Of a stretch of DNA of 64,000 nt, positions 28,331-51,888 are shown one piece after another. Below the pieces are notes generated by a model that was given only the letters and a program-made list of their open reading frames with translations, made no database searches and was not told the DNA's origin. Within the stretch, counting starts at the first letter, position 1; each line of letters starts with the position of its first letter. The DNA comes from Pseudomonadota bacterium. GTDB lineage: Bacteria > Pseudomonadota > Gammaproteobacteria > Eutrophobiales > Eutrophobiaceae. The position numbers were made by a program, and so were the translations under genes. The DNA lies in NCBI GenBank assembly GCA_022574295.1, contig JACZSJ010000001.1:786-64785 (forward strand), in the 5' to 3' direction.

Positions 28331-28738
28331 ATGCGTTTAATTAAAGTTTTTCCCTTTATACTACTGTTGGGTTTTTCATCGGTGGTTAGTGCTAATGATT
28401 TTCCGACACGTGATCGAGCTGAGTATGTGCTTAATTGCCTCCAGGAACTTGGTAGAAACTCCATGGCCGATTTACAAACATGTTCATGCCGGATCGACGC
28501 AATCGCATCACAAATACAATTTGAACAATATGGTTGGGCGGTCACCTATGAACGTAATAAAAGAATGACAGGTGAAAAGGGCGGTATCTTCAGGGATAAC
28601 GATGCAGGTAAAGCATTTGCGAAAGAACTAACAGTAGCTACGGAAATAGCTGAAAGCCAATGCAAACAGGTTGTGCAGATTGTGGCACCGACGGATCTGA
28701 CAGGGGATAAAAAATATCATGAGATAGTGGTATATTAA
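28331..28738 (+). CDS. Small secreted hypothetical protein
   Basis: Signal peptide MRLIKVFPFILLLGFSSVVSA and 4-5 Cys. No recognisable family. Confidence 0.4.
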   Translation: MRLIKVFPFILLLGFSSVVSANDFPTRDRAEYVLNCLQELGRNSMADLQTCSCRIDAIASQIQFEQYGWAVTYERNKRMTGEKGGIFRDNDAGKAFAKELTVATEIAESQCKQVVQIVAPTDLTGDKKYHEIVVY

Positions 28739-28864: not shown

Positions 28865-29752
28865 TTATAGCGTAACTGAATGTGTTGCTTTAAATTTATT
28901 ATTCTTGGTATCAACAGCCTCAACGACTATGTCAGCTTCCTTTTCTGGTTTGAAAAAGAAACGAAAACTTGGATCCTGACTGACAGCAAACGTCAGAATT
29001 GCTTTCATTACCAGTTTGCCATCATAGCTTATCTTAAGTCCTTTAATAAAATGAGGGGGTGGTTTAACGCCGGTTCTGACGCTTGCCCCAAGACCCGTGA
29101 TATTTGGGTGACTAATTTTAAGCTGCATCAAATTAGCATCTCCTAGGGCAACATCACCAATCGTATTTATTTTCATTTTGCCCATACGCTTCAGTGATTC
29201 TTCTACACTTGCACCTAGGGGTTCAGAACAACCACCAAGCGAACGGATGAAAGATTTACTCATCAGTAAATCACCGTTGTTCATTTCAGTCACGACGCGG
29301 AAATAGGTATTATCATCAACCCTGATACGCATGGCCAAATCTGCCTTGCCACTTTCCGGGGTAAATTCAAATATACCGACCAGTGGCAGCGGATTTTTAT
29401 CCAGATATATATATAGCTTTTTAATATAGCGGTCGGCCGTTTGAGGAATCCTTGTATGTATCGAGACAGGCACGACTGAAGGATCTTCTGATCGGTATGG
29501 CGCTTTTATCTCAATAACAGCATCAGCCTGATTTTCATTAATTTTCCTGTCCTGAAATACCCCGGGACGAATGTTTTTATCCCACACAGTATCAGATTGT
29601 TTTTTAAGATCATCGGGGCTTCGGTTTCTCAGCTCGTCAACAGTTCCGGCCATTGTCGGCAAGGTGAATGCGAACAACGATATGAATAAGGTTGTTCCAA
29701 TAAAAATATTTAATGAATCTCTCATCACACTCTGCCTTCTTGCAATATCCAA
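28865..29752 (-). CDS. Quinoprotein dehydrogenase-associated SoxYZ-like carrier protein
   Basis: Signal peptide. The mid-region has a SoxY-like GGC motif (SLGGCSEP). The C-terminal region has a SoxZ-like HPxxTG motif (ISHPNITGL). Divergent from xoxF. Confidence 0.5.
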   Translation of the reverse strand: MDIARRQSVMRDSLNIFIGTTLFISLFAFTLPTMAGTVDELRNRSPDDLKKQSDTVWDKNIRPGVFQDRKINENQADAVIEIKAPYRSEDPSVVPVSIHTRIPQTADRYIKKLYIYLDKNPLPLVGIFEFTPESGKADLAMRIRVDDNTYFRVVTEMNNGDLLMSKSFIRSLGGCSEPLGASVEESLKRMGKMKINTIGDVALGDANLMQLKISHPNITGLGASVRTGVKPPPHFIKGLKISYDGKLVMKAILTFAVSQDPSFRFFFKPEKEADIVVEAVDTKNNKFKATHSVTL

Positions 29753-30571: not shown

Positions 30572-32473
30572 ATGAGTAAAATATCTTTTAAATCAGTGGT
30601 AATCGCTGCGATCGCTCTGGTGGTGCCTGTAGTTGCGTCTGCGAATGATGAAGTTCGCAGCCTCATACAGAACCCTAACTATTGGGCGTTTCCTAGTGGT
30701 AACTACGACGGTCACCGATATACTGCGTTGAAGCAAATCAATAACAAGAATGTCGGTAAGTTACAAGTTGCGTGGACATTTTCTACAGGTGTTCTGCGTG
30801 GTCACGAAGGCGGTCCTCTGGTTCTGCCTGGTTCTGCAACTGGTCTGCCTGGTGATACGCTGTACATCCATGCTGCTTTCCCGAACAATACGTTTGCGAT
30901 TGATCTGGATACACTGCAAATCCTCTGGCATTTTGAACCACAGCAGGATTTCGACGTAACTGTTCCTGTGATGTGCTGTGACACGGTCAACCGTGGTCTT
31001 GGTTACTCAATGGGTCAGATTTATCTGCAGCAAGCTGACACCGTATTGGTGGCTCTAGATGCTAAAACAGGTAAAGTCAACTGGTCAGTTCAACAGGGTG
31101 GCGATATCTCGGCTGCCTTGGGTGGTCCTTACGGTCCTGAATCAGGTATGACCAATACCAACGCACCACATCCTATTAAAGACAAAGTCTTTACGGGTTG
31201 TTCTGGTGCTGAGTTTGGTGTCCGTTGCTGGATGGCCGCTTACAATGCAAAAGACGGTAGTCTGGCATGGCGTGCTTTCAGCATGGGCCCTGACGCAGAC
31301 ATGATGTTCGATGCAAACACAACCTCTCTGGGCAAGAAAGTTGGTAAGGATTCCAGCCTGAAGACCTGGAAGGGTGATCAGTGGAAGCAAGGCGGTGGTT
31401 CTGCTTGGGGTTATTGGCCTGCTGATTTCGACGAAAACCTGATGTACTACGGTACTGGTAATCCAGGGACCTGGAATCCGGTAGTTCGTCCTGGCGACAA
31501 TAAATGGTCTATGACTATGTTTGCTCGTGATATCGACACTGGTGTTGCACGTTGGGTCTATCAGATGACGCCTCATGATGAGTGGGACTATGATGGCGTT
31601 AATGAAATGATCCTGGCTGACTTCAAAGTTAAAGGCAAAATGACAAAAGCACTGGTTCATTTTGACCGTAATGGCTTTGCATATACCATGGACCGTATAA
31701 CAGGTGCTCTGTTAGTTGCTGAGAAATATGATCCAGCAGTGAACTGGGCAACAGGTATTGATATGAAAACAGGTCTGCCACAACGTGTTGCTAAATACAG
31801 TACACACGGTAACGGTGAAGACGTCGTTTCTAAAGACATCTGTCCTTCAGCTCTGGGCACCAAGGATCAACAGCCTGCTGCTTACTCACCACAGACAGGT
31901 CTTTTCTATGTACCTACCAACCACGTATGTATGACCTACGAACCAGTTAGCTATGCTGCTGGGGGTAACAAGTATGTTTCAGGTCAGGCTTTCGTGAATG
32001 CAAACTTAACCATGTATCCTGCTGGTGCTGTATGTCCGGATTGCCCGAACAACAACGCAGCAAAAGACAACATGGGTAACATGCTTGCATGGGATGCGAG
32101 CACAGGTAAGATTGTATGGAACATCGTTGAGCAGTATTCAGTTTGGTCAGGTGTACTCGCAACCGCAGGTGGCGTAGTGTTCTACGGTAACCTCGAAGGT
32201 TGGGCTAAAGCTGTCGATGCCAAGAGCGGCAAACTTCTCTGGAAGTTTAAAACTCCTTCAGGCATCATCGGTAGCTTCAATAGCTGGGCATACAAAGGCA
32301 AGCAGTATGTCGGTGTCTTATCAGGTATTGGTGGTTGGGCTGGCGCAGTTGTTGCTATCCCAGGTTTAGCCGCAGCTCCTGACACAGCAGCACTTGGTGC
32401 TGTTGGTGGTTACAGGAGTCTGTTGCAGCACTCACGTGCTGGTGGTGTTTTGATGGTGTTCGCACTGCCATAA
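30572..32473 (+). CDS. xoxF: PQQ-dependent methanol dehydrogenase, XoxF-type (lanthanide-type DYD motif)
   Basis: 633 aa with a signal peptide, the vicinal disulfide PVMCCD, and the tryptophan-docking repeats typical of the 8-bladed PQQ propeller. The motif W-D-Y-D-G (nt about 31583-31597) has Asp where MxaF-type enzymes have Ala. XoxJ-like and SoxYZ-like partners are adjacent. Confidence 0.8.
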
Positions 32474-32506
32474 GTAAGTAGCACGTAACAAACTAAGTAG
32501 TATTAA

Positions 32507-32539
32507 AGCCCTGACCTTTTATAAGGTCGGGGCTTTTTT
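32507..32539 (+). terminator. Rho-independent terminator after xoxF
   Basis: AGCCCTGACC-ttttataa-GGTCGGGGCT hairpin followed by TTTTTT. Confidence 0.75.
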
Positions 32540-32890
32540 AATCAGTATGTGGTATGTGGTCCCTCTTGCTGAGGGAGTGTGGAAATCTAATGAATCACAA
32601 AATCCTGGAAAGTTCCGTAATATGGTAAAAAACTTTGCCTTGTTCACCAGGTCATAGTGGGTGTACCCGCTAAATGATATCTTTCGCATGCATTTATTTG
32701 GACTTAAGCGCTTTGAATAGAGTTTATTAATTATATATTAGGGATTGAATTTACAGAGTAAATCCATCAATATTAAACAATGTGCCCATGCCAAATGGTC
32801 CTGTGCAGTCGACAGCTAGAAAGTCTGCATATGGCGATGGTGGTACACAATCGTTTTAAATAGTACGAAGCCTCACTGGAGAAGGTTAAG

Positions 32891-33313
32891 ATGAAAATAA
32901 TGAAAATTGCTTTAATATCTGCTGCTTTATCAGTATTACTCGTATCTTTCAACGCAGCTGCAGAAGAACATTTGGTTGTCTCTGGCGCGACCAACTTTAT
33001 TCCCATGCATCTTTTTATTAAACCTGGGGATACTGTCAAATGGACAAACATGACCATCCATAATAGTGAATCTATGGAGGGTCTGATCCCGAAAGGTGCA
33101 GAACCATGGAAATCCAACATTGGTCAGGAATTGGCCGTGACCCTGGATGTCGAAGGTGTTTATATCTATAAGTGCTTTCCTCACTTTGCTAACGGCATGG
33201 TGGCAGCCATCATTGTTGGCGAAGCAAATAATATGAATCAACTTGATAATAATGCCAAAGGCAGGGAGAAGGGCGTCATCTTTAAGCTGAAGAAGAAACT
33301 TGCAGCAAAATAA
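32891..33313 (+). CDS. Pseudoazurin-family blue copper protein (cupredoxin)
   Basis: Signal peptide. Type-1 copper ligand pattern H..C-F-P-H-x(4)-M (YKCFPHFANGMV), as in pseudoazurin. Confidence 0.7.
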   Translation: MKIMKIALISAALSVLLVSFNAAAEEHLVVSGATNFIPMHLFIKPGDTVKWTNMTIHNSESMEGLIPKGAEPWKSNIGQELAVTLDVEGVYIYKCFPHFANGMVAAIIVGEANNMNQLDNNAKGREKGVIFKLKKKLAAK

Positions 33314-33334: not shown

Positions 33335-34237
33335 ATGATTAACTTCAATAAAGATGCTCAACGATCAGGGCGAAAGTATTTTGTCCTGATTACAATGCTG
33401 ATCCTCGGTTTTACCAGTAACATTGCGATTGCAGAAGATTCTAAATACAAGGAACGACCTGTTCTGAAAGTGTGTGCAGATCCTCAGTTGATGCCATTTT
33501 CTAATAAAAACGAAGAAGGCCTGGAAAACAAGATTGCTGAGTTATTAGCCAAAGAACTCGGGGCCGAACTCAAATATGTATGGTTTCCACAGCGAATGGG
33601 GTTTATTCGTAATACGCTTCGTTCTGAAGAAAATGGTATTTTCAAATGTGATCTGGTTTTGAGTGTGCCGGAACACTTTGAACTGGCCGCTACAACCAAG
33701 CCATATTACGCTTCAACTTATGCATTAGTGTACGTTAAGGGAAGAGGGTTAGACAGTGTTACGGAGCCGGATATGCTTGAGACACTGAACGATGAGAGAC
33801 AAGATATTAAAATTGGTCTGTTTGATCGTGGCCCGGCGCAACTCTGGGTTTTTCAGCGTAATCTGATGGATAATATGGTCCCGTATCAATTACAGCTGGG
33901 TGATGCCAGGAAGAACCCAACTGAAATTATCTTGAGTGATCTGCTTGATGGAAAGTTCGATGCGACCATTGTTTGGGGTCCGACGGCAGCATATTTTGCC
34001 ACACAGAACAAAGATAAAGGTGAATTGGTGATACTACCGTTAAAGGATGATCTAAAATTACCGGAAATGAAATTTGTATACAATATGTCGATGGCTGTCA
34101 GGCATGCTGATAAGGAATGGAAAGAACAATTAAATGGATTGATTGATAAATATCAGGAAGATATCAATGCTATTATCAGCAGCTATGGTATCCCTATCGT
34201 TGAAGTAATACCAAAGCCAGCATTAGATGATGATTAG
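33335..34237 (+). CDS. xoxJ: Quinoprotein dehydrogenase-associated periplasmic binding protein (MxaJ/XoxJ family)
   Basis: Signal peptide followed by PVLKVCADPQLMPFSN, matching the LRVCADPxNLPFS signature of MxaJ/XoxJ. About 300 aa. Confidence 0.7.
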   Translation: MINFNKDAQRSGRKYFVLITMLILGFTSNIAIAEDSKYKERPVLKVCADPQLMPFSNKNEEGLENKIAELLAKELGAELKYVWFPQRMGFIRNTLRSEENGIFKCDLVLSVPEHFELAATTKPYYASTYALVYVKGRGLDSVTEPDMLETLNDERQDIKIGLFDRGPAQLWVFQRNLMDNMVPYQLQLGDARKNPTEIILSDLLDGKFDATIVWGPTAAYFATQNKDKGELVILPLKDDLKLPEMKFVYNMSMAVRHADKEWKEQLNGLIDKYQEDINAIISSYGIPIVEVIPKPALDDD

Positions 34238-34273: not shown

Positions 34274-35041
34274 ATGATTAGATATTTATTACTGGTGGTT
34301 TTCCTTTCAAGCTCATTATCAGCGGTCGCTGAGGAAACGGCAAAAGAAGAAATAAAGCCACAGATTGGCTCAATGGATGATTCAGGAAGGGTTGACCCGG
34401 ATGAATACGAATTTTCAAATGCCGAAAATAAATTGTGGATGGATAACCATTTACTAAATATTAAGCAGGCAGTAAGGCTACACTATGAGTTTGAGAAGAC
34501 AGGCTCTTATGAAGATGGTTTCATTGACGATGTCTATCTGGATATTGTTAAAATAAATGAAGACGGCACAAGGGATGCTGTCCTGGATTTCTTTTCAGAC
34601 GAACAAAAACAAAAGGTGTCACCGAGCAATGTGAAGAATATCACGGGTAATCCGGTGATAGGCATATATCTACAGGGCGACGTTTACGAAATGAGTCGTT
34701 TTACTGAAGGCAACTGGAAGTATTTTCATCGACAAATTAAGCTGGCGATGGCAGATAGCAATACCAGTGAGCATGTGACTGTTGAACTTGAAGGGAAGCT
34801 GTATCAGGGCGAAAAAATTGTACTGTATCCCTATGAAAATATTAAACAGAAAAGTCGCTTAAAAGAATTTTCTGATAAGCGTTATGAATTTATTCTATCG
34901 GATGAAATACCAGGAAAGTTATATCAAATAAGAACAGTAATTAACGACGCAGAAAATCCAGCTGTCCCTTTGGTGGAAGAAGTATTAACGTTAAAGAGTG
35001 TGGAGTTCGCTACTAAGGTTGTTGCCAAAAACGAAAATTAA
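34274..35041 (+). CDS. Periplasmic hypothetical protein in the xox cluster
   Basis: Signal peptide MIRYLLLVVFLSSSLSAVA. No recognisable motifs. Co-directional with and immediately after xoxJ. Confidence 0.45.
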   Translation: MIRYLLLVVFLSSSLSAVAEETAKEEIKPQIGSMDDSGRVDPDEYEFSNAENKLWMDNHLLNIKQAVRLHYEFEKTGSYEDGFIDDVYLDIVKINEDGTRDAVLDFFSDEQKQKVSPSNVKNITGNPVIGIYLQGDVYEMSRFTEGNWKYFHRQIKLAMADSNTSEHVTVELEGKLYQGEKIVLYPYENIKQKSRLKEFSDKRYEFILSDEIPGKLYQIRTVINDAENPAVPLVEEVLTLKSVEFATKVVAKNEN

Positions 35042-37980: not shown

Positions 37981-39641
37981 TATTCAAATTCCTCAGGAAA
38001 ATATTTTATTGCACAACGTAATGGGTTCGGGGCTGCCTGACCCAGGCCACAAATAGAGGCATCTTCCATTGCCCGTGCCAGTTCTTCTAATAAGGACTGA
38101 TCCCAATATTTTTCTTCCATCAACTTAACTGCTTTTTCAGTTCCTACCCGACAAGGCGTGCATTGCCCACAGGACTCATCTTCGAAAAATCGCATTGCAT
38201 TTAACGCCATATTTTTAACGCTGTCTTTATCTGATAGTACGACAATCGCGGCTGAGCCAATAAAACAACCATGTTCCTGTAATGTATCAAAGTCGAGTGG
38301 AACGTCACCTAAAGAGGCAGGGAGTATCCCGCCAGATGCGCCACCAGGGAAATAGCCATAAAATTTATGACCATCCAGCATACCGTCACAGTATTCTTCA
38401 ATCAATTCACGTATTGTAATGCCTGCTGGTGCAAGATATACACCGGGTTTATTAATTCGACCACTGACAGAAAATGATCTTAATCCACTTCGTTCATGAC
38501 GGCCTTCAGATGAAAACCATTCCGGACCCTTTTCGATGATGTCCCGAACCCAATGCATTGATTCCATATTTTGTTCTAATGTCGGTCGCCCAAACAGACC
38601 GACCTGAGCAACATAAGGGGGACGTAGGCGTGGTAGCCCACGTTTGCCCTCGATGGATTCGATCATAGCGGACTCTTCGCCACATATATAAGCACCTGCA
38701 CCGCGACGCAAATGGATATTGGGTAATGGGCAGGGGGGATCTTGCTTTAATGCGGACAGTTCCTTTTCCAATGCTTTTCTGCAGCCTGCATATTCATCCC
38801 TCAAATAGATATATATATCCTCAGCTTCGATTGCCCAATGCGCTATTAATGTCCCTTCAATAAATCGATGAGGATCCCGTTCGAGGTAATATCGATCCTT
38901 GAATGTTCCCGGTTCTCCTTCATCAATGTTAATAGCAATTAGTCGAGGCTTGGATTGTTGACGTAAAATGCGCCACTTTTGCCCTGTTGGAAAGCCTGCA
39001 CCACCGAGTCCACGGAGTTTCGAATCTTCCAGTATTTTAATGATCTCTTCTCGATCGTGTTTTCCATTAACACAATCAATCAGCGTTTGATAACCACCAG
39101 ATTTTCGATAGCTGGCATAGTCAATATACTCTGGCATTGCTGCGTCAAACTCTCTCCTATTTACAGCATTGTCTATTTTCCCCTGGTTGGCATGCTCAAT
39201 TGGGTTTGTGCCAACAACGGCAACAGGGGCTGTATCACACCGACCGATACATGGCACAGCTTGAATTCTGACATCATCTTTATATTTGGCTTCTAGCTGA
39301 TTAATGAGCTCTTTAGCGCCAAACATCTCGCAAGTGAGTGATTCACATACCCGGATGGTTAGTGTTGGCGGAGGTGGCTCATTTTCGTTTAACACGTCAA
39401 AGTGATGATAAAACGTGGCCGTTTCATAGATTTCAGCCATTGGTAGGCTCATGTCTATGGCGAGTGCAAGAATATGACGATTTGAAATATGGTGATAGTG
39501 ATCCTGTATTTTATGGAGATTCTCAATCAACATATCGCGCGTGCGGGGCGCATCACCTAGAAGCTGCCGAACTTCTGCTAAAGATTTATGGGGTGTAGTA
39601 CGACCTTGAACACGACCTTTTTTCCCACGTGTACGTTTCAT
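37980..39641 (-). CDS. fdsB: NAD-dependent formate dehydrogenase beta subunit (NuoE-like plus NuoF-like fusion; FdsB/Fdh1B-like)
   Basis: 553 aa with an N-terminal thioredoxin-like 2Fe-2S domain and the NuoF flavin/NADH motifs (GLGGAGFPTGQKW, ESCGQCTPCR). Confidence 0.85.
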   Translation of the reverse strand: MKRTRGKKGRVQGRTTPHKSLAEVRQLLGDAPRTRDMLIENLHKIQDHYHHISNRHILALAIDMSLPMAEIYETATFYHHFDVLNENEPPPPTLTIRVCESLTCEMFGAKELINQLEAKYKDDVRIQAVPCIGRCDTAPVAVVGTNPIEHANQGKIDNAVNRREFDAAMPEYIDYASYRKSGGYQTLIDCVNGKHDREEIIKILEDSKLRGLGGAGFPTGQKWRILRQQSKPRLIAINIDEGEPGTFKDRYYLERDPHRFIEGTLIAHWAIEAEDIYIYLRDEYAGCRKALEKELSALKQDPPCPLPNIHLRRGAGAYICGEESAMIESIEGKRGLPRLRPPYVAQVGLFGRPTLEQNMESMHWVRDIIEKGPEWFSSEGRHERSGLRSFSVSGRINKPGVYLAPAGITIRELIEEYCDGMLDGHKFYGYFPGGASGGILPASLGDVPLDFDTLQEHGCFIGSAAIVVLSDKDSVKNMALNAMRFFEDESCGQCTPCRVGTEKAVKLMEEKYWDQSLLEELARAMEDASICGLGQAAPNPLRCAIKYFPEEFE

Positions 39642-40477
39642 GCTACTTTTTTGAGGTTGAGTGTTTGTAAGATCAGGATTTCTCCCTTTCCATTACGTGC
39701 CAAATCACCTGAAAAACGATGTGCTTCTGGTCCAAATTTATTGAAAATTGAAAATTCTTTACCCATATTCGAGAGTTGTGTAAACAGCAAGCGTAAAAAC
39801 TGTATTTTTAAATTTCCGTTGCTTTTAAATGTAGCGGTGATATGAGCGGGTTTCTTCGCCAGAATGATTGTCCCGCGTCGCATCCCAGCACCTGGGTTCT
39901 TTCCAGCTTTATCAAGGACAATAATTGTTCCTGCATGCATGCGGCTACCACAAAAATCACCTGCCTTACCATATATAATAATCATGCCGCTACGCATTCT
40001 GTCGCCGACACGATCCCCGGCAGAACCAGATATTTTGATCATGCCATCAGTCATGCCAAATGTATCACCAGGTTTGCCAGCACCGATATGATCACCAGCA
40101 TTGCCATTAATATCAATGCGACCACCAGACATATTGTTTCCGACCCATGACCCCGCGTTTCCGTTAATTGTAATAATGCCTCCTTGTAAATATGAGCCAA
40201 GAATTTTACCAACATCGCCATTCACATTGATTGATCCATAGGACATTTTTCTACCGACTGACACGAGCTTTTCACAACTACGATTGATCTGAATATTTTT
40301 AGAATCTGACCCAGTCACATTGAAGAGTGTGTCCAATACCACCTTGTTTTTACCATAAGGCAGCTTCAGGGATTTAATTTTAGTTTTGTTCAAACCAGCA
40401 AGATTATCGGGCGTTAATTGAGCAACATCCAAAGTAAACTTTGGTCGAATCTTTAATGTAAAGGTTAACGGATTCAT
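39638..40477 (-). CDS. fhcC: Formylmethanofuran dehydrogenase subunit C homolog (Fhc complex subunit C)
   Basis: Gly-rich beta-helix repeats (INGNAG..IDINGNAG), as in FwdC. 4-nt overlaps with the neighbouring genes. Confidence 0.8.
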   Translation of the reverse strand: MNPLTFTLKIRPKFTLDVAQLTPDNLAGLNKTKIKSLKLPYGKNKVVLDTLFNVTGSDSKNIQINRSCEKLVSVGRKMSYGSINVNGDVGKILGSYLQGGIITINGNAGSWVGNNMSGGRIDINGNAGDHIGAGKPGDTFGMTDGMIKISGSAGDRVGDRMRSGMIIIYGKAGDFCGSRMHAGTIIVLDKAGKNPGAGMRRGTIILAKKPAHITATFKSNGNLKIQFLRLLFTQLSNMGKEFSIFNKFGPEAHRFSGDLARNGKGEILILQTLNLKKVA

Positions 40478-41370
40478 TTCATTATCTTCCTGAGATGAAA
40501 ATGATACGGCCCCAAATCACCGCCATAATTACCAGCACTGATGCGGCATATGCCTTTTTTTGGGCCATACGAGCAGACTGCTTTAATACCAACACGCATT
40601 GCTTCGTTGATTGATTCTTCATCAAGACCATCAATAACAATTTCCAGAACAGAGCCGATCTCATCAGTCAGTTCTGAATCAACCTGTCCTTTTAATGTAG
40701 GACAATAAGCCTCATTGGTTGATGCCGGAAGAAAATCATATTTCGATCCGACTTTTGAACCTGATCCAACAATCCCCCCCGGGAAAGCAGTAATGACACC
40801 TGGAACTTTTTGAATTTCTTCAACTGCCTTTTCACAAGCCGATAAAGCATGGCGTGTGGTTTTTGCCAGCACAAGAAAGTTTCCGCCGCCTACAGCTTTG
40901 GTAGAGCCAGTAGTATCTTCACAAATGAATTCACCATGCATAACGGGGATGCGCCAAAATCTTCGGCTGTTGATTTTTTTTGATATTTGATAGCCATCAC
41001 CAAAATAACGCAGGCTTTTGCCCATGGGAATTTGATGACCATCACGAATGCCAGCGTAACAGGCTGCTGTTGCTGTAGTCATCACAGATTGGCCTACACG
41101 CATCGGGATTTGTTTTTCCAGGTCTTTCATAGACATTGCGAATATCAGTAGTGATATCCCAGGTCGACCATCAGGTGTCTCTGAAGGTGACAACTCTTTT
41201 TCAATATCTGCTTCACAACCGCAAGCGATAACCGATGAAGCAAATCCTCTGAGTGCGTTTGCTGCTCTGTATGCCCATTTTAAATTCATTGCTGTAATAA
41301 TAATGCGCGTGGCTTTCATAGGGAAAGCCTCTGCAAAAGTATCATCAATATATACGCCGTTTATTTTCAT
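40474..41370 (-). CDS. fhcD: Formylmethanofuran--tetrahydromethanopterin N-formyltransferase (Ftr; FhcD)
   Basis: 298-aa Ftr family protein (MKINGVYIDDTFAEAFPMKATRIIITA). Confidence 0.85.
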   Translation of the reverse strand: MKINGVYIDDTFAEAFPMKATRIIITAMNLKWAYRAANALRGFASSVIACGCEADIEKELSPSETPDGRPGISLLIFAMSMKDLEKQIPMRVGQSVMTTATAACYAGIRDGHQIPMGKSLRYFGDGYQISKKINSRRFWRIPVMHGEFICEDTTGSTKAVGGGNFLVLAKTTRHALSACEKAVEEIQKVPGVITAFPGGIVGSGSKVGSKYDFLPASTNEAYCPTLKGQVDSELTDEIGSVLEIVIDGLDEESINEAMRVGIKAVCSYGPKKGICRISAGNYGGDLGPYHFHLRKIMK

Positions 41371-41376
41371 TATATT

Positions 41377-43032
41377 TTATGTACAAGGTTGTACGATGAT
41401 GTTGCCATTACCATGTTCAACGATTTCATCATCATCGATCTTGAAATTACCTAGTTTAACGGTCATATAACGGTCAAAATATTTTTTTAATGATTTTTCA
41501 ATACTCTTGTCATAATCAGGTCTTAGGGTATGAGTACCACCAGTGACTACCTTGACAATTTTGCCGTTTTTGACAATTTCTTCTCCGTTCTTAAAGACAT
41601 ACAGTGGTTTTTCAAACATTTTTTCTTTATTCTTTATATTGTTATACACAGTAATATCTGCAATGGCACCACCGCCCAGGTGGCCTCTGTTTTTTAATCC
41701 TAAACTGCGAGCTGGTGCCGCACGTGTCATGGTCGCGATTTCATAAAGTGTGTATTCGCGGTCAATACTACTTAATATACTTGCAGCAGCAGCACCTTTG
41801 TTGATTGTCGCCAGCATGTCATTTCTGAAACTACGATCCATTAGCAATCGGATTAAATGGGGATAGCTTGTAAATGGTGCACCATTTGGATGATCGGTTG
41901 TCAGGAAAATTCGCCATGGGTCATTGATTAATAAAAAGAGTTCAAGGCCGATTGCCCATTGCAAGGCATTAACAAAATTCTTGTCTCGATATTTAAATGG
42001 GACAACACCACAGCCCGCATCACATTCAATATCCATGATCACCCACTTTTTCGGGTGAGCATGCCAGTGACCTGCATATTGACGCATAGTATCACCTGAT
42101 GCAGTAACGGTTTGTCCAAACAATACCTGACCTACATCGATAGAAATATTCGGATTTGAGTTTACAGCTTCAGCAATTTCCGCAGCCCCTGATGAAAACT
42201 TTCGGTCACCTTCAGTACCATAACTATGAAATTGGACATGGGTTAAATGTAATGGCATACCTTCAACTGCACGTATAGTATCTAATGTTGTGTGCATATT
42301 GCCTGGAACACCGAGATTACAACCATGTAAATGCAGAGGGTGGGGGACACCTAACTCGCGAACTGCACGTGCAAGTGATTTTATGATCTCACGAGGGGAG
42401 ACACCATAATGTTCATTCTGTTCATCCAGATCTAACTTACGTTGATTAAATTTAAAGGCATTGATGCCGCCAGGGTTTACAACTTTAATCGCTATTGCCT
42501 GTGTAGCATTGATTATCCAGCCCACGTAATCACTAATAGCTTCACGATCTTTTTTCGCAGTTAGCATACGCAGGAAAAAGTCATCACTACCCAACATGGC
42601 ATAGGCGCCTTTATCAACCATTGGTGTATCTGCCATTTCCATGTGTGCCTGACGTGCATTTGAAGGTAGCATGGCAGGTTCAAAACAGGCCGTATAACCC
42701 ATTTCCGCATATCGATATCCTGCAGTAAGTGTTGATGGTGCAGCATGGCCACACCCTGAACGTGTCAGTTTTGTTTTACTTACAAGGTCTGCCCGATGAT
42801 CTTCGGGCAACATCATACGTGCAATATTTACCTTGCCACCACCAATATGAGTGTGGATATCAATTGCACCAGCCATAATTATTTTGCCATTAAGATCATA
42901 TGTCTTATCAATCTTTATTGAAGAGGCAGGTTTTCTCGTGATGTAGCCATCCTGTAGATAAATATCTCTCTTTTCACCATTAATACCATGCACAGGATCG
43001 TAGACAGTGCCACCAGATAATTTAATTAACAT
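41377..43032 (-). CDS. fhcA: Formylmethanofuran dehydrogenase subunit A homolog (amidohydrolase; FhcA)
   Basis: 551-aa FwdA-like amidohydrolase with a metal-binding HxH motif (DIHTHIGG). Confidence 0.85.
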   Translation of the reverse strand: MLIKLSGGTVYDPVHGINGEKRDIYLQDGYITRKPASSIKIDKTYDLNGKIIMAGAIDIHTHIGGGKVNIARMMLPEDHRADLVSKTKLTRSGCGHAAPSTLTAGYRYAEMGYTACFEPAMLPSNARQAHMEMADTPMVDKGAYAMLGSDDFFLRMLTAKKDREAISDYVGWIINATQAIAIKVVNPGGINAFKFNQRKLDLDEQNEHYGVSPREIIKSLARAVRELGVPHPLHLHGCNLGVPGNMHTTLDTIRAVEGMPLHLTHVQFHSYGTEGDRKFSSGAAEIAEAVNSNPNISIDVGQVLFGQTVTASGDTMRQYAGHWHAHPKKWVIMDIECDAGCGVVPFKYRDKNFVNALQWAIGLELFLLINDPWRIFLTTDHPNGAPFTSYPHLIRLLMDRSFRNDMLATINKGAAAASILSSIDREYTLYEIATMTRAAPARSLGLKNRGHLGGGAIADITVYNNIKNKEKMFEKPLYVFKNGEEIVKNGKIVKVVTGGTHTLRPDYDKSIEKSLKKYFDRYMTVKLGNFKIDDDEIVEHGNGNIIVQPCT

Positions 43033-43046
43033 AATTCAATGATTCC

Positions 43047-44318
43047 CTAAATCAATTCAATAATGCGATTTAATATGTCGCTAACACTCATATATTTTGA
43101 ATCGCGTAATTTTTTTAGAGGGAGTGAAACAACGTTATCTGTTCGGATTAATTGGCCCGAATGATCAATGCCAGGTGTCGCAACAGGGATAAACACATCA
43201 GGTTTAAAATCCAGTTTTGCCTCAGGGGTGGCAAGTACAACGGTTGGTATCTTCGCTTTTGGCGGCCTTGTATTTGAACTAAAGCTGGAAATCCACATCA
43301 ATGCATCAACTTCTTTATTTTTCAGTAAACTTTTGGTTGAATTTCTACCGACATCGTGTCTTGGAAAACCTTTACTAAAATTTACACGTAATGGAAAGCC
43401 ACTTTGCCATGCACTTACATTATTTGCACTCATTGCTCCATCAGCACCAGCCAGGGTAAATCCGGCAAAACGCGTCGTTCTGGTCAGATATTTAACCAAT
43501 TCACAAATACTTTGAATGGTTAATTCGGCATGTGGAAAATTTAATTCGCCAGGTGCCCAGACAATAACACCGTATTTTGCTTCTTGCATTTGTTTGGCGA
43601 GTTTCAGTAATGTTGCAAGACTAATTCCTGCAATTTTTGGTGTCTGTATTATGTTGCCAGCAATGATGGCATGCAAAACCGAAATTATTTCATTGATTTC
43701 TTCCTGTTCACACTTTAATACCGTAGGTAATTTTCCTTCGGGGCTTCTTCCTGTTGAAGTTTTCAACTTATCACCTATATAAACAATCTTCCTTTTTTTT
43801 ATATTTCTGAATAATGAGTTTTTATTCCATATGACACGCTCGAAAAAGCGTGGATAATTTGATGCGTCAGTTCCCGCAAAGATAATAAAATCTGCCCGGT
43901 TTTTTATTTCTGCCATGGTCGTCATCACCCAGCCAAGGTCTTGTAATACCAGTGTGTTTCTGATCACACCATCACTATGCATATGATCGATCGTCGCACC
44001 TATATTATCGGCAAGATGCATAACAGAACGCATGCCTCCAATATCTGTGCCCAATCCAGCAATTAATGGTGCAGATGATTGTTTCAGGATTGTGGCTGCA
44101 GCCTTAATAGCCTTATCGATAGAGCAGGATTTACCTTTCAGAGCGGGGGTACTATCAGGCAGTGGTTGTGCGAAATGCGCTTTCACTTTGGCGCAGCCAT
44201 TCTCTTTCACTGTTAATTTGCTGTCCTTGTTCTGAATGACTAAATCATCACAGATAAGACTGCAAAATGGACAAGGAACTTCATTCAGCACAATTGTCTG
44301 ATGTGTTTTTGTTTTCAT
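43047..44318 (-). CDS. fhcB: Formylmethanofuran dehydrogenase subunit B homolog lacking the active-site Cys (FhcB)
   Basis: Has the N-terminal Fe-S Cys motif (CPFCSLICDD). At the position aligned to the catalytic Cys-His it has IDHMHSDG, so no Cys. This is consistent with the non-redox Fhc hydrolase complex. Confidence 0.75.
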   Translation of the reverse strand: MKTKTHQTIVLNEVPCPFCSLICDDLVIQNKDSKLTVKENGCAKVKAHFAQPLPDSTPALKGKSCSIDKAIKAAATILKQSSAPLIAGLGTDIGGMRSVMHLADNIGATIDHMHSDGVIRNTLVLQDLGWVMTTMAEIKNRADFIIFAGTDASNYPRFFERVIWNKNSLFRNIKKRKIVYIGDKLKTSTGRSPEGKLPTVLKCEQEEINEIISVLHAIIAGNIIQTPKIAGISLATLLKLAKQMQEAKYGVIVWAPGELNFPHAELTIQSICELVKYLTRTTRFAGFTLAGADGAMSANNVSAWQSGFPLRVNFSKGFPRHDVGRNSTKSLLKNKEVDALMWISSFSSNTRPPKAKIPTVVLATPEAKLDFKPDVFIPVATPGIDHSGQLIRTDNVVSLPLKKLRDSKYMSVSDILNRIIELI

Positions 44319-44608: not shown

Positions 44609-46000
44609 CTAATTCAGTAGTTCCAGCATTTCTTTGACGTAGGTTATTTTTTCTCGTGGTTTACCCTTCGCTTGACCACGCTCGACTTCAGTGGCATCAA
44701 TTGATTTCCATTCCTGATAATTTATATACCTCACATTTCGTGAATCCAGTAGCGAATAAAGCGTTTCAGCCCCAGCTTTCTGGTCACCCGAATCAAGTGT
44801 ATCGAGATCGGCGAGAAGAGAATTTACCGTTGCAACACTGCAGGCACGATTTGTGCCGATGATGCCGCTGGGGCCTCGTTTGATCCAGCCGGCAGTATAG
44901 AACTGTGGCACTATTTCGTCATTCTCCGTGATGCGGCCATCGTCGTTTGGAAAAACACCCCAGCCGTCATGAAAAGGGACGCCTTGCATTGGAATACCAC
45001 GATAGCCAATGCTGCGAAACAGGATACCGGTTTCCAGTTCATAGAATTTACCTGAGCCCCGTGCAGATTGCTTAAAAGGGTCACCTGAAAGTTGATTGTG
45101 TTCGATCCTGACTCTCTCCAGTTTTGAGTCTCCTAATAATTCAACCGGACTCCTGAGAAACTGGAAATGGCATCGACGTGCCTTCCTTGATGATGCCGGG
45201 CCCGATATAGCCCGGGATGAATATTTCTGGAATAAGTCATAAATCTTTTTACTGCCGATATTCGATTTTTCTTCCAGTTCTATATGACTGGCTTTATTCA
45301 ATTCCAGTTCTGTTGAGTCAACAACCGCATCGCAATGTTCTAGTTCACCAAATTCGCGCAGTTCTTTCGGTGTAAATTTGGCTTGTGCAGGACCACGTCG
45401 GCCGATGACATAAATATCTTTAATCTTGCTTTCTGCTAGTACATCCAGCGCGTGTTCGGCGATATCGGTATGTTTCAATTCATCAACTGTCTTGGACAGG
45501 ATTCGGGCAACATCGGCGGCGACATTGCCCTGGCCGATAATCACAGCAACTTCATTGGATAAATCGAATTGTCGATCACGATAATCAGGATGACCGTTAT
45601 ACCAGGCAACAAATTCAGTTGCTGTATAACTACCAGCCAGATCTTCACCGGGGATACCCAATCTACGGTCTGATTCTGCACCACAGGTAAATATAATTGC
45701 ATGGTGGGAATCGCGCAGTTCGTCAACGCTAATGTCCTTGCCCACCGTGATATTGGCAATCAGATTAAATTCAGGTGATTGTGCTATTTTATCGTAAAGT
45801 AAGATCGCCTGTTTTAGTTTTGGATGATCAGGTGCGACGCCACTTCTCACCAGGCCATAAGGGGAAGGGAGACGTTCCAGCATATCAACCTTGATATCAA
45901 TATCAGATTTAATAAGTGCTTCTGCCGCATAAAATCCACTTGGGCCGCTGCCAACGATGGCAACACGCAAGGGATTTTGTTCACTGCCGAGTTGAGCCAT
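44609..46000 (-). CDS. fprA: FprA-type NADPH:ferredoxin (adrenodoxin-reductase-like) oxidoreductase
   Basis: 463 aa with N-terminal VAIVGSGPSGFYAA..MLERLPSPYGLVRSGVAPDHPK, matching the FprA / adrenodoxin reductase / GltD family. Confidence 0.75.
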   Translation of the reverse strand: MAQLGSEQNPLRVAIVGSGPSGFYAAEALIKSDIDIKVDMLERLPSPYGLVRSGVAPDHPKLKQAILLYDKIAQSPEFNLIANITVGKDISVDELRDSHHAIIFTCGAESDRRLGIPGEDLAGSYTATEFVAWYNGHPDYRDRQFDLSNEVAVIIGQGNVAADVARILSKTVDELKHTDIAEHALDVLAESKIKDIYVIGRRGPAQAKFTPKELREFGELEHCDAVVDSTELELNKASHIELEEKSNIGSKKIYDLFQKYSSRAISGPASSRKARRCHFQFLRSPVELLGDSKLERVRIEHNQLSGDPFKQSARGSGKFYELETGILFRSIGYRGIPMQGVPFHDGWGVFPNDDGRITENDEIVPQFYTAGWIKRGPSGIIGTNRACSVATVNSLLADLDTLDSGDQKAGAETLYSLLDSRNVRYINYQEWKSIDATEVERGQAKGKPREKITYVKEMLELLN

Positions 46001-46060
46001 TAAAAATATCTCCCACTGGGAATTATGTAATAAAATTATGCAATGATTATTAACGAATCA

Positions 46061-46369
46061 TTAGAAACCAAGTTCCGTCTTACGTTCCTCAGCGCCCGGT
46101 AATGGATCCATTTGCTCATCACAAACAGGGAGATCAGGTGCTCGTTCAGCATTAATGGCAATCCATTCTTCCTTGCCTTCAGCAACAATATCATCATCCT
46201 CAAAGATTGCTTGTACAGGGCATTCAGGGATACAGGCACTGCAATCAATGCATACATCAGGATCGATATACAACATTTCATCATCAAAATGAAAACAGGC
46301 GACAGGACAGACAGTGACACAATCTGTGAAACGACAGGATTTACAATTATCAGTTACTATAGTTGTCAT
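46061..46369 (-). CDS. fdxA: 7Fe ferredoxin ([3Fe-4S][4Fe-4S], FdxA type)
   Basis: 102 aa with CKSCRFTDCVTVCPV and CIDCSACIPECP motifs. Immediately upstream of fprA on the same strand. Confidence 0.85.
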   Translation of the reverse strand: MTTIVTDNCKSCRFTDCVTVCPVACFHFDDEMLYIDPDVCIDCSACIPECPVQAIFEDDDIVAEGKEEWIAINAERAPDLPVCDEQMDPLPGAEERKTELGF

Positions 46370-46413
46370 AATATTGACCTCCCCAAAGGTTTTAGGCCCC
46401 TTTAATAAAAGAG

Positions 46414-47226
46414 TTACTCGTTTGCGTATAAAAGAATTTCACCTTTGTTTAATTCGATGGCATCACCAATCCAGCGTTTGTAGTTGCCATTTATTTGTTC
46501 ATCAGAGACTTCCATGCCGAGTTTTCTGATATAAGATAAATACATTCGTAAGTAGGTCGGATTATAGGTACAGACATAACTAAATGTTGGAATCATTGGT
46601 GCATGATGCATTGATATTATGGTTCCTCGCTTCATGCTGGCACCATTACGGATCCCCATTTCGCCAAGTACAATAATTGTTCCGGCAAGCATATTAACAC
46701 CGGTAAAGTCACCCGTGTTTCCACCAATAGCAATCAACCCACCACGCATTGTATTGCCCGTCTCATTTTTTACGTCGCCATGAATAATTATTTCACCACC
46801 TTGCATGCCGATGGGGCTGCCTCGATAGGCGCTACCAATTAAATGTCCAGCATTACCTTTGATAGTAATCTTGCCTCCCGTCATTTCCGGGGCAACCCAG
46901 TCATGCGCATTGCCTTCAACAACGATCTCGCCACCACTCATGCAGGCGCCCAGATGTTGGCCAACATCACCTTCGATGATCATCTTGCCAATCGTCATTT
47001 CAGAACCAAGGTGTTTAACATTGGCTAAATCACCTTCGAGTTGTATTTCACCATCACATTGCCCCTTCACGGTAAAAAAATCTCCAAGTGCCGTTTGGTC
47101 ATTACCATGGAAAACAGTCAAGGCCGCGATTGCAGTTTCATTCACACCATTTAATTTATCGGGACAGATAACATCTGCCTCGAGTGGTACGTCAGGTTTT
47201 GTATGTAATGAAAGTTTTAAACTCAT
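46414..47226 (-). CDS. fwdC: Formylmethanofuran dehydrogenase subunit C (second copy)
   Basis: 270 aa with Gly-rich repeats (IVVEGNAHD..ITIKGNAG..IIIHGDV). 4-nt overlap with ftr. Confidence 0.8.
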   Translation of the reverse strand: MSLKLSLHTKPDVPLEADVICPDKLNGVNETAIAALTVFHGNDQTALGDFFTVKGQCDGEIQLEGDLANVKHLGSEMTIGKMIIEGDVGQHLGACMSGGEIVVEGNAHDWVAPEMTGGKITIKGNAGHLIGSAYRGSPIGMQGGEIIIHGDVKNETGNTMRGGLIAIGGNTGDFTGVNMLAGTIIVLGEMGIRNGASMKRGTIISMHHAPMIPTFSYVCTYNPTYLRMYLSYIRKLGMEVSDEQINGNYKRWIGDAIELNKGEILLYANE

Positions 47227-48134
47227 GACTGGTTGCTTGCTTCCCTTGCTTCCAGAATTTTATTCAAATGCAGATGGTATTGGCCTAAATTGCCCCCATA
47301 ATTACCCGCAGATAATTGCTTGATACCTGGTTTTGCAGCGGCATGTAAACCAACATGCATCGCCTCAGCAACAGCTTCTTCGCTCAAGCCATCAATCACA
47401 ATTTCCAGTACACAATTGACACCTTCTGGCACCAGTGATTCGCTGGACACGGTACGCAGAGTCGGGCAATAAGCATCATTGCTTGATGCAATGAGTGCTT
47501 TATATTTTGAACCGACCTTACTACCACTGCGTACAACGCCATTCGGGAAAGGCAGAATGACCCCGTCAATTTCTCGCATGGCTTTTGTTGCTGCCGTTGC
47601 TGCTCTCAATGTAGTTTTTTGATCTTTACCTAAAATCAGAATATTGCCACCACCGACGGCATCCTGGATACCGAAGCGTTCATCAACGACAAATTCGCCA
47701 TCCATCACCGGGATACGCCATAGCCGTTGTTTCCCCAATACCTTGCTGCTTTGATGGCCATCACCGAAGTAACGTAATTGTCCACCAACAATGGCTGTTG
47801 TGTCAGATTCAAGACCATTAAAGCAAGCCGTTGTTGGGCAGGTCATGACACATTGGCCAACACGTTCCATCAGGCGCTTTCCCAATCCATCGGCATCCAT
47901 TGCAAAAATCAGGACGCTGATGCCGGGCCTGTTATCCGGTGTCTCATCCGCTGATAATTCTTTTTCTATGCCTGCTTCGCATTTACATCCAATCACCGAG
48001 GTGGCAAAGCCAGTGATGGATTGTGCTGCTGCCATTGCCCATTGTTTTGATTCAGCCGTGATAATGATCCGACTGCCACTCATTTTGAATGCTTCAGCAA
48101 AGGTATCAACGATTTCGGTAGACTTGATTTTCAT
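47223..48134 (-). CDS. ftr: Formylmethanofuran--tetrahydromethanopterin N-formyltransferase (second copy)
   Basis: Ftr family (MKIKSTEIVDTFAEAFKMSGSRIIITA). Start trimmed to the internal Met, giving about 303 aa. Confidence 0.85.
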   Translation of the reverse strand: MKIKSTEIVDTFAEAFKMSGSRIIITAESKQWAMAAAQSITGFATSVIGCKCEAGIEKELSADETPDNRPGISVLIFAMDADGLGKRLMERVGQCVMTCPTTACFNGLESDTTAIVGGQLRYFGDGHQSSKVLGKQRLWRIPVMDGEFVVDERFGIQDAVGGGNILILGKDQKTTLRAATAATKAMREIDGVILPFPNGVVRSGSKVGSKYKALIASSNDAYCPTLRTVSSESLVPEGVNCVLEIVIDGLSEEAVAEAMHVGLHAAAKPGIKQLSAGNYGGNLGQYHLHLNKILEAREASNQS

Positions 48135-48147
48135 CAGTATTCGCCAG

Positions 48148-49788: not shown

Positions 49789-49878
49789 TTCTCTCCCTTA
49801 TTTTATGCTTGTTCTTCTTTTATTGTTCTACAGGTTAATATTATTTTTCTTACTTTATCTTTTTCATGCAACCCTGGT

Positions 49879-51228: not shown

Positions 51229-51257
51229 TACTATTCTGGCCTCATGTATCAGAATTT

Positions 51258-51614
51258 TCAGATATTTTTCACTGTTACTTTTTCTACCAGTACTTCAATA
51301 TTTTTAGATATAGGCATGCCGGTTCCAGCCGTATCACCGTCCATCAATTGAGAAGAGGGTGGCCCATATGCGATGAATAGTATGCCTGACGGCAAGTCTT
51401 CGGGTTTACGACCTTTGCAAGTAACGACCGTTTCTCCAACTTCATTGCTTAGACGAACTGAATCACCTTCCTCCAGGCCGAGACGTTGCATATCGTCACT
51501 GTTCATCTCCAGGGTACTTGTGACTAACAGGTATTCCGGCTTTAGTTTGCCCTTGTTTAGAGCCGTGCCCTGTTTACTGGAACGCCCGGGCACTAATATC
51601 ATGGTTTCCGCCAT
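51258..51614 (-). CDS. fwdD: Formylmethanofuran dehydrogenase subunit D (molybdopterin dinucleotide-binding domain)
   Basis: About 118-aa FwdD-like beta-barrel protein with GAGGA as RBS before the chosen ATG. No FwdD counterpart exists in the fhc set. Confidence 0.7.
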   Translation of the reverse strand: MAETMILVPGRSSKQGTALNKGKLKPEYLLVTSTLEMNSDDMQRLGLEEGDSVRLSNEVGETVVTCKGRKPEDLPSGILFIAYGPPSSQLMDGDTAGTGMPISKNIEVLVEKVTVKNI

Positions 51615-51888
51615 GTTGTCCTCACGCTTTAATTTTTTGGGTGTTCGACGGGTTAGCAAACCAGACTGACCTTTCAGGCATCTGAATCTGGTTTTATATA
51701 TTGTGGGTACTCAACCGTATGTTGACATTATAGTCTGGAATTTTTGTCGAGAACAGCAAAAACGCGCATCACGATTAGAATACTATGAAAAAATGTTCTC
51801 GCCAGTACCTCAAAAGTCTAACTTACAGTATGATAACAGGCCAATTTTCATAAAATAATACAAAATATTCAAACCCATTTGTAAGTCA

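Follow-up and report, generated by a model that had tools for sequence, protein, structure and literature searches.

We investigated a 64,000-nucleotide (nt) stretch of DNA (hereafter the window) from a gammaproteobacterium of the family Eutrophobiaceae (assembly GCA_022574295.1, contig JACZSJ010000001.1, positions 786 to 64,785), which carried the gene of a lanthanide-type methanol dehydrogenase, XoxF. The next gene, paz1, encoded a copper protein of the pseudoazurin family and was followed by xoxJ. In orthologous modules of other bacteria, the same position between xoxF and xoxJ, here called the slot, was occupied by a c-type cytochrome gene. On balance, the comparison of these sequences favoured a displacement of the cytochrome XoxG by Paz1, a soluble periplasmic pseudoazurin that would take electrons from XoxF. 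Paz1 was accepted as the probable acceptor mainly because the two carriers excluded each other in the slot and because orthologous modules of the cytochrome type were found. All components and the type of system, XoxF with XoxJ, are known, and the novelty is the carrier. The only known physiological partners of XoxF are c-type cytochromes (XoxG and cGJ). No report that pairs XoxF with a cupredoxin, whether named as such or as pseudoazurin, azurin or blue copper protein, was found in the literature that was searched, and the public annotation of Paz1 does not flag a pairing with XoxF.

Genes of the XoxF-Paz1-XoxJ module

Three genes were at the centre of the analysis.

30572-32473, + strand: XoxF, lanthanide-type pyrroloquinoline quinone (PQQ) methanol dehydrogenase, 633 amino acids (aa), with signal peptide (TIGR03075, PDB matches, motifs)
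32891-33313, + strand: Paz1, predicted secreted type-1 copper protein of the pseudoazurin family, 140 aa (116 aa mature) (PF00127, PDB matches, ligands, AlphaFold2 (AF2) model and Foldseek)
33335-34237, + strand: XoxJ-like periplasmic accessory protein with a binding-protein fold, 300 aa (TIGR03871, PDB 6ONP)

The dehydrogenase belonged to the methanol/ethanol PQQ dehydrogenase family of NCBIfam (TIGR03075), with 643 bits against a cutoff of 480. Its closest solved structures in the PDB were two XoxF proteins, 6DAM from M. buryatense (E 1e-242) and 6OC5 from M. extorquens (E 3e-219), and the matches to MxaF chains (approximately E 1e-162) and ethanol dehydrogenases (E 1e-88 or weaker) were weaker. 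The bit scores were 810 and 733 for the two XoxF5-type structures, 546 for the XoxF2-type 4MAE and 479 for 7O6Z, in a comparison that comprised solved structures only and no XoxF3 or XoxF4 reference. The motif W-D-Y-D-G was located at residues 338-342 (nt 31583-31597). A preliminary description of this DNA had placed the Asp that distinguishes lanthanide-type enzymes at nt 31586-31594, and this position was exact, with Asp339-Tyr-Asp341 encoded there. The extra Asp lay two residues past the catalytic Asp, where MxaF has Ala, and it was accompanied by the vicinal pair Cys135-Cys136 (nt 30974-30979). From the family and the Asp motif, lanthanide-dependent methanol oxidation is predicted for XoxF. 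Short insertions relative to the solved XoxF structures, e.g., PGSATGLP, were seen at residues of approximately 84-91, 179-188, 463-467 and 488-498. They were found in the window protein and its close relatives (627-658 aa), and distant Paz-linked XoxF proteins (approximately 611 aa aligned) appeared without them.

Paz1 scored 48 bits with Pfam PF00127 (cutoff 21), and solved pseudoazurins in the PDB matched it at E 4e-19 to 5e-13. The copper ligands were His57 (nt 33059-33061) and Cys95-x2-His98-x4-Met103 (nt 33173-33199), with a His-Cys spacing of 38 residues, and all four were invariant in 17 homologues. The AF2 model (predicted local distance difference test score, pLDDT, 81) had two C-terminal helices, 115-121 and 125-139, which are typical of pseudoazurins. 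When this model was searched against the PDB with Foldseek, the top 27 matches were all pseudoazurins (template modelling score, TM, 0.63-0.71), ahead of plastocyanins and amicyanins. The amicyanin model TIGR02657 gave only 18.5 bits. These results agreed with the earlier description of a pseudoazurin-type cupredoxin with C-x2-H-x4-M ligands. Paz1 scored below the cutoff of the NCBIfam pseudoazurin equivalog TIGR02375 (88.2 bits against 109.85), which meant that it was a divergent member of the pseudoazurin family and did not count as an equivalog of the classical pseudoazurins of denitrification. We treat Paz1 as a predicted type-1 copper protein, with copper binding read from the ligands and the fold. 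The trio XoxF-Paz1-XoxJ corresponded to the NCBI proteins MCH8845138.1 to MCH8845140.1, in which Paz1 was named merely 'copper-binding protein'. More than 200 relatives of Paz1 were found in the databases, nearly all from uncultured Gammaproteobacteria, with complete chromosomes of 1.4-2.5 Mb among them.

The gene after the cupredoxin was xoxJ, as had been described. Its product scored 260 bits with TIGR03871 (cutoff 212) and 100 bits with the strict MoxJ equivalog TIGR03870, whose cutoff is 258. The best PDB match was the M. extorquens XoxJ (6ONP, E 1.6e-36), ahead of MxaJ (E 8e-17). Signal peptides were present on all module proteins, which placed them in the same compartment.

No xoxG-type cytochrome c gene had been reported in the window, and this was borne out, as the CxxCH motif occurred in no open reading frame (ORF) of at least 60 aa in any frame of the whole 64 kb. 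A wider scan of the window for haem motifs gave a single CxxxCH (CTRLCH), which was inside a formate dehydrogenase gene. XoxG-like sequence was not detectable in the window, and the module cytochrome of soil-type loci, used as a query, matched neither the window nor any Paz-type locus. For the small subunit MxaI, a tblastn search of the window with a single MxaI sequence gave chance matches only (E 0.085 or weaker), and no ORF was present between the module genes of the window. None of the Paz-type genome loci had a credible cytochrome gene less than 10 kb away. Thus, the canonical xoxFGJ arrangement, in which a c-type cytochrome is encoded with xoxF and xoxJ, was absent from the window.

This absence from the 64-kb window carried little weight, because in related Gammaproteobacteria xoxG typically lies at a distance from xoxFJ. 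In Methyloprofundus, xoxG was described as 'distantly carried' from xoxFJ, and in a Methylobacter metagenome-assembled genome (MAG), xoxG was missing from the xoxFJ cluster, with candidate cytochromes elsewhere (PMC8788690, PMC7902576). A conventional XoxG encoded elsewhere in the genome might likewise be the direct acceptor of XoxF. Paz1 would then be a second or alternative carrier, which would either link XoxG to the oxidase, as cytochrome cH does, or stand in under copper sufficiency or iron limitation. This explanation is unlikely in our estimation, but it has to be taken seriously. In addition to the two precedents, it was supported by a solitary XoxF without partner genes in a related lineage (locus L047) and by several unlinked small cytochromes c in a MAG of the UBA4486 lineage.

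The slot between xoxF and xoxJ in other genomes

The slot was surveyed with a metagenome scan that used an alignment of XoxJ and was independent of the cupredoxin. The slot was classified in the 80 best loci.

50 of 80 loci: pseudoazurin ORF; GC content 0.35-0.64
19 of 80 loci: monohaem cytochrome of approximately 115 aa (W-R-A-L-A-C-E-R-C-H); GC content approximately 0.62-0.68 (16 measured)
11 of 80 loci: slot cut off
0 of 80 loci: both carriers (an apparent co-occurrence in one locus proved to be an artefact of an alternative frame within xoxF)

The ligand pattern C-x2-H-x4-M was kept in all 52 slot pseudoazurin ORFs of at least 110 aa. The best NCBIfam match of the slot cytochrome was 'c-type cytochrome, methanol metabolism-related'. 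The dehydrogenases of both groups carried W-D-[YF]-D-G, and the one that was checked in the cytochrome group (locus L111) was XoxF5-like, with 958 bits to 6DAM and 60% identity to the window XoxF. The XoxJ proteins were placed in a neighbour-joining tree, where those linked to a cytochrome formed one clade among deep-branching pseudoazurin-linked ones. Two high-GC loci of the cytochrome type had an unannotatable ORF of 200-260 aa between the cytochrome and xoxJ (L111, 4137-4916; L107, 4077-4682), which could be a real gene or a stop-free high-GC stretch.

Complete modules of the cytochrome type were found in cultured organisms' replicons, and their comparison with the window involved three further genes.

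34274-35041, + strand: p255, secreted, acidic, Cys-free protein of 255 aa and of no known family, with a predicted, weakly LolA/RseB-like half-barrel fold; last gene of paz1-xoxJ-p255
28331-28738, + strand: p135, small secreted protein with four Cys and of no known family; conserved beside this type of XoxF
28865-29752, - strand: SoxY-SoxZ fusion, 'quinoprotein dehydrogenase-associated SoxYZ-like carrier' (TIGR04557, Pfam SoxY and SoxZ)

The order on plasmid pAZKH of Azoarcus sp. KH32C was PQQ dehydrogenase, cytochrome c (C-D-R-C-H), XoxJ-like protein, p255 homologue, p135 homologue, zinc metallohydrolase, SoxYZ-like carrier and metallo-beta-lactamase (MBL) hydrolase. Its p255 homologue matched at E 3e-39, and its XoxF was 60% identical to the window XoxF. 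In Paraburkholderia largidicola, the order was dehydrogenase, C-E-R-C-H protein, XoxJ-like protein and p255 homologue. The cytochrome c of both modules occupied the exact position of Paz1. A search of plasmids and chromids with XoxJ returned modules of the cytochrome type only. With Paz1 as the query, the best-covering match was in Methylophaga thalassica, where the gene was located by copper-resistance genes and not by xoxF. The window module was orthologous to the cytochrome module gene for gene, save for the slot carrier, and this suggested a non-orthologous gene displacement.

The slot data also bore on a remote XoxG. Where a module cytochrome was present, it was in the exact slot of Paz1 and the two never co-occurred, so that functional equivalents would be expected rather than successive carriers. 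The preliminary description had proposed a blue copper protein as the possible physiological acceptor of XoxF, and had argued from the absence of xoxG. That argument was weak; the suggestion itself was supported by the slot exclusivity and by the Azoarcus and Paraburkholderia modules.

Two small proteins were considered in other roles and rejected. In the metagenome set, 35 of 38 Paz loci and one of nine cytochrome loci (high-GC, soil-type) contained p255. A Paz-specific role of p255 was nevertheless ruled out by its clear homologues in the cytochrome modules of Azoarcus and Paraburkholderia. Neither p135 nor p255 was a candidate for a missing electron carrier, since neither had a haem-c or cupredoxin motif, and p255 was LolA-like and contained no Cys.

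Gene order was then compared among genomes. A genome scan with the pseudoazurin, restricted to one genome per species, gave 36 loci, and further loci were obtained through protein look-ups. The order XoxF-Paz-XoxJ was present in 22 distinct genome loci, usually with p255 next. Among the remaining Paz loci, four were cut off upstream, and one (L029, Candidatus Porifericomitaceae) had Paz-XoxJ-p255 without XoxF within 10 kb. The order persisted although the identity dropped to 37-50% for Paz and to approximately 63-77% for XoxF, and it persisted at several distant loci where the formate dehydrogenase and SoxYZ genes were no longer adjacent. Because the order survived both divergence and changing flanks, p135, XoxF, Paz, XoxJ and p255 were taken as the core module. 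On the 1.72-Mb chromosome OZ250183.1 (L009/L018), the SoxYZ-like and formate dehydrogenase genes were fragmented, whereas XoxF, Paz1, XoxJ and p255 were intact. An intact module in such a reduced genome also spoke against a remote XoxG as the direct acceptor.

One of these loci (L031) came from a genome that names the GTDB order Ga0077536 and carried the XoxF-Paz-XoxJ order. Francis et al. grouped Ga0077536 with UBA4486, UBA4575, Methylophagaceae and Cycloclasticaceae, and Ga0077536 and UBA4486 were described as unexpected methylotrophs (PMC8371827). For UBA4486, strong transcription of xoxF was reported both from plumes at Guaymas and throughout the ocean (PMC12120059, PMC12542740). Contigs identical or near-identical to that of the window occurred in several deep-sea metagenomes.

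Paz1 might also have no relation to methanol and might serve a copper nitrite reductase, nitrous oxide reductase or copper handling, with a gene order that was simply inherited. This was consistent with the best-known role of pseudoazurins as donors to denitrification enzymes, with the copper-resistance genes beside the closest plasmid cupredoxin of a cultured organism (Methylophaga thalassica), and with the synteny of the housekeeping genes that flank the module in close relatives. Related cupredoxins without XoxF or XoxJ (L040, L041) pointed the same way. However, the core module persisted with differing flanks, the paz1-xoxJ pair was a tight unit, neither nirK nor nosZ was present in the window, and the exclusivity against a methanol-module cytochrome was hard to reconcile with an unrelated function. 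We regard this explanation as improbable. A further alternative is that Paz1 is an accessory or maturation factor, which would poise the redox state of the Cys-Cys disulfide or handle metal together with XoxJ and p255, and would not be a catalytic electron route. The co-location with XoxJ and p255 would fit such a role, and direct PQQ-to-copper transfer is not known from the enzyme family. However, the four type-1 copper ligands and the pseudoazurin fold, which are typical of electron carriers, were strictly kept, and it was an electron-carrier cytochrome that Paz1 replaced in the slot. The probability of a maturation factor was considered very low.

Some loci differed in the number or the setting of the cupredoxin genes. 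Tandem pseudoazurin genes were located 5' of xoxJ in L039 (9412-10336), L036, L098, L105, L110 and L043, and in L105 and L110 there was no XoxF within approximately 3.3 kb upstream. In two single-cell genomes of 'uncultured proteobacterium' (L040, 4911-9181; L041), a related cupredoxin (41-49% identity) adjoined formate dehydrogenase and had neither XoxF nor XoxJ in its vicinity, and in L040 it also followed a malyl-CoA-lyase-like gene. These two may be serine-cycle marine methylotrophs.

Spacer, proposed electron route and surrounding genes

Between xoxF and paz1 there was a spacer of 417 base pairs (bp), in which three elements were recognised.

32506-32539, + strand: intrinsic terminator 3' of xoxF, with a 13-bp GC-rich stem, a 4-nt loop and a T-run (from sequence; folding energy -22.2 kcal/mol)
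32609-32636, no strand assigned: inverted repeat AAAGTTCC-N12-AAAACTTT, candidate regulator-binding site (putative function), conserved in the spacer alignment
32745-32773, + strand: promoter-like block TTGAAT-17 nt-CAATAT, approximately 30 nt, resembling sigma-70 -35/-10 elements (putative function; spacer alignment)

The terminator began 32 nt past xoxF. A hairpin with a T-run was found 6-55 nt past the xoxF stop codon in 18 of 19 related loci, with differing sequences. The inverted repeat can also be written AAAGTTCC...AGAACTTT. The promoter-like block, approximately 118 nt 5' of the paz1 start codon, was the best-conserved part of the spacer and scored under the threshold of the consensus scan. 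Both elements were present in six close relatives only, and distant loci had neither of them. They probably represent a lineage-specific regulation of paz1-xoxJ-p255. The gaps within these three genes were 21 nt (paz1-xoxJ) and 36 nt (xoxJ-p255). From this arrangement, we infer that xoxF may form one unit, with separate termination or attenuation, and that the trio paz1-xoxJ-p255 may form its own operon. Because a conserved terminator intervenes, paz1 is not simply co-transcribed with xoxF. An Rfam search of the window gave one tRNA only and no match in the spacer. The spacer contained no conserved small ORF, as its indels were not in threes and its conservation was patchy. The cupredoxin gene had been described as lying directly downstream of xoxF. 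It was the next gene, but 'directly' did not hold, given a 417-bp spacer with a strong terminator.

Several observations weigh against Paz1 as the acceptor of XoxF. The strong conserved terminator and the separate promoter-like element part xoxF from paz1, and the terminator also counted in favour of a remote XoxG. Such a gene may lie elsewhere in the genome, as in the gammaproteobacterial methanotrophs. Paz-XoxJ without XoxF was found in six loci (L029, L100, L103-L105 and L110) in which 3-10 kb of upstream sequence was available; p255 was present in four of the six. The ratio of 50 pseudoazurin to 19 cytochrome loci was biased, because the sample had been seeded with motifs from Paz-linked XoxJ proteins. 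A search with a Paz profile for fusions of a cupredoxin with XoxJ returned many multi-cupredoxin proteins, and the ten multi-domain HMMER hits that were inspected included no Paz-XoxJ fusion and contained neither an XoxJ nor a substrate-binding protein (SBP) domain. We also know of no PQQ alcohol dehydrogenase for which direct transfer from PQQ to copper has been shown; where azurin is the acceptor, a haem c domain lies between the two.

With Paz1 as the acceptor, the following route would be expected. XoxF, with PQQ and a lanthanide ion (Ln3+) and with Asp341 as the extra metal ligand, would oxidise methanol in the periplasm. Cu(II)-Paz1 would dock at the active-site funnel of XoxF and re-oxidise the reduced PQQ in two one-electron steps. 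Cu(I)-Paz1 would then pass its electron to a membrane acceptor, e.g., a terminal oxidase, possibly via the membrane-tethered paralogue Paz2. XoxJ, p255 and p135 would act as the same accessory proteins as in the modules of the cytochrome type, and the formaldehyde would be handled by the neighbouring Fae/tetrahydromethanopterin (H4MPT)/Fhc and formate dehydrogenase genes. Pseudoazurin potentials are approximately +230 to +280 mV, in the same range as those of cytochrome cL, cGJ and XoxG, and a role of Paz1 as the acceptor was therefore thermodynamically plausible. There are also precedents: amicyanin takes electrons from methylamine dehydrogenase. Azurin is described as the natural acceptor of a type II quinohaemoprotein alcohol dehydrogenase (PMC8348568), and cupredoxins can feed aerobic oxidases (PMC12423496).

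A wider version of this route would free the whole periplasmic chain of haem c, running from XoxF to Paz1 and then to a lipid-anchored Paz2 and/or the oxidase, with c-type cytochromes systematically exchanged in an iron-sparing manner. We consider it doubtful. If it held, no earlier case of an alcohol dehydrogenase passing electrons directly from PQQ to copper would be known. The lineages concerned are widespread uncultured methylotrophs in or near Ga0077536 and possibly UBA4486.

Paz2 was found in seven genomes, with 54-64% identity to Paz1 (L005, 10001-10648; also L006, L007 and L019-L027). Its length was approximately 206-215 aa, and it carried a lipoprotein signal (L-L-A-C) as well as a linker. 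Its gene stood in a conserved order of NAD-binding dehydrogenase, M20 peptidase, 78-aa ORF, Paz2, hexapeptide transferase and gidA. The 78-aa ORF (L005, 9768-10004), just 5' of Paz2, duplicated the N-terminal lipobox and linker of Paz2 (...YDPDVPSMVVEDNGVI.EEEIY..WPE) and had no copper domain. In the UBA4486 MAG 20100303_Bin_105, a single annotation table labels the protein in the same position as a 308-aa 'cytochrome c-555' (PF13442) (PMC8371827, supplement 4). Judged by sequence and label, the alternation of Paz2 and cytochrome c-555 would fit a clade-wide tendency to swap c-type cytochromes for cupredoxins.

As for the remaining genes around the module, p135 had no match in Pfam, NCBIfam or the PDB. 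Its homologues were located 5' of XoxF in most related loci; one adjoined the solitary XoxF of L047 (7094-7474, 41% identity), and another was in the cytochrome-type module of Azoarcus (L136, 6624-6974; 36% identity, E 8e-18). The SoxYZ-like carrier scored 215 bits with TIGR04557 (cutoff 140), and its gene was divergent from xoxF, with an intergenic region of 819 bp. It was missing or fragmented in some relatives (L002, L009) and present in the Azoarcus module. Two members of the quinoprotein dehydrogenase 'relay' set (TIGR03871/TIGR04557), the SoxYZ-like carrier and MoxJ_2, were thus above their cutoffs in the window. The zinc metallohydrolases that accompany SoxYZ in Azoarcus were not found among the subset of window ORFs that was scanned.

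Downstream of the module, the minus strand carried the alpha and beta subunits of formate dehydrogenase and fhcCDAB (39638-44318), and farther downstream there were a second cluster resembling fwd/fhc, genes for the biosynthesis of H4MPT, mch and fae. Because these genes accompany the module, the window was regarded as a methylotrophy island. The second formylmethanofuran-dehydrogenase-like cluster (44609-51659, - strand) encoded an FwdD-like protein, a 449-aa FwdB of the molybdopterin type, FwdA, another formyltransferase and FwdC. Genes for a ferredoxin (46061-46369) and for a GltD-like oxidoreductase that binds NAD(P) (44609-46000) came next. The cluster may encode a redox-active complex of the Fwd type in a bacterium.

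Comparison with known systems

In the ocean, methanol is oxidised mainly by XoxF enzymes. The pseudoazurin variant was widespread in metagenomes, and its lineages were among the active marine methanol oxidisers. These results suggested a copper-for-iron swap in methanol respiration. If the cupredoxin is the partner of XoxF in this large and abundant group, a need for copper would have to be added to models of marine methanol respiration, and the iron, copper and lanthanide demands and the annotation of these organisms would need updating. The pair would also be a natural PQQ/lanthanide-to-copper electron-transfer system for study. The slot is filled by a cytochrome in some orthologous modules and by a cupredoxin in others, which provides matched systems for the study of partner recognition.

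An exchange of this kind resembles that of cytochrome c6 and plastocyanin in cyanobacteria and algae, where a haem carrier and a cupredoxin are interchangeable for the same partners. In that system, which belongs to the photosynthetic chain, both genes are usually present per genome under copper control, whereas here the alternatives were in different lineages. The mau cluster of methylamine dehydrogenase and amicyanin likewise combines a periplasmic quinoprotein dehydrogenase of a methylotroph with a dedicated cupredoxin acceptor. However, its cofactor is tryptophan tryptophylquinone (TTQ) and its acceptor is of the amicyanin subfamily, in contrast to PQQ with lanthanide and the pseudoazurin family in the window. 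The verrucomicrobial XoxGJ fusion (cytochrome cGJ) shows a close coupling of carrier and XoxJ, to which the 21-nt distance of paz1 and xoxJ can be compared; it is a haem carrier that is fused to XoxJ, and no Paz-XoxJ fusion was among the candidates inspected. The type II quinohaemoprotein alcohol dehydrogenase of Pseudomonas putida HK5 is also a PQQ enzyme whose electrons go to a blue copper protein (PMC8348568). It has an in-chain haem c domain between PQQ and azurin, whereas the window XoxF was without a haem motif.

The xoxFJ clusters of Methyloprofundus and Methylobacter are likewise gammaproteobacterial, with xoxJ adjacent to xoxF and no clustered cytochrome; their enzyme is of the XoxF5 type, which the window XoxF resembled most among the solved structures. 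In these, there is nothing between xoxF and xoxJ and the cytochrome is distant, whereas a conserved cupredoxin gene was inserted in the window. The closest likeness was to xoxF-xoxG-xoxJ of M. extorquens AM1 and the modules of Azoarcus and Paraburkholderia, which have the same order of dehydrogenase, small carrier and XoxJ and an XoxF5-like enzyme with the lanthanide Asp. In those modules the carrier is a haem-c cytochrome, whereas in the window it was a predicted type-1 copper pseudoazurin, set apart from xoxF by a terminator and a 417-bp spacer.

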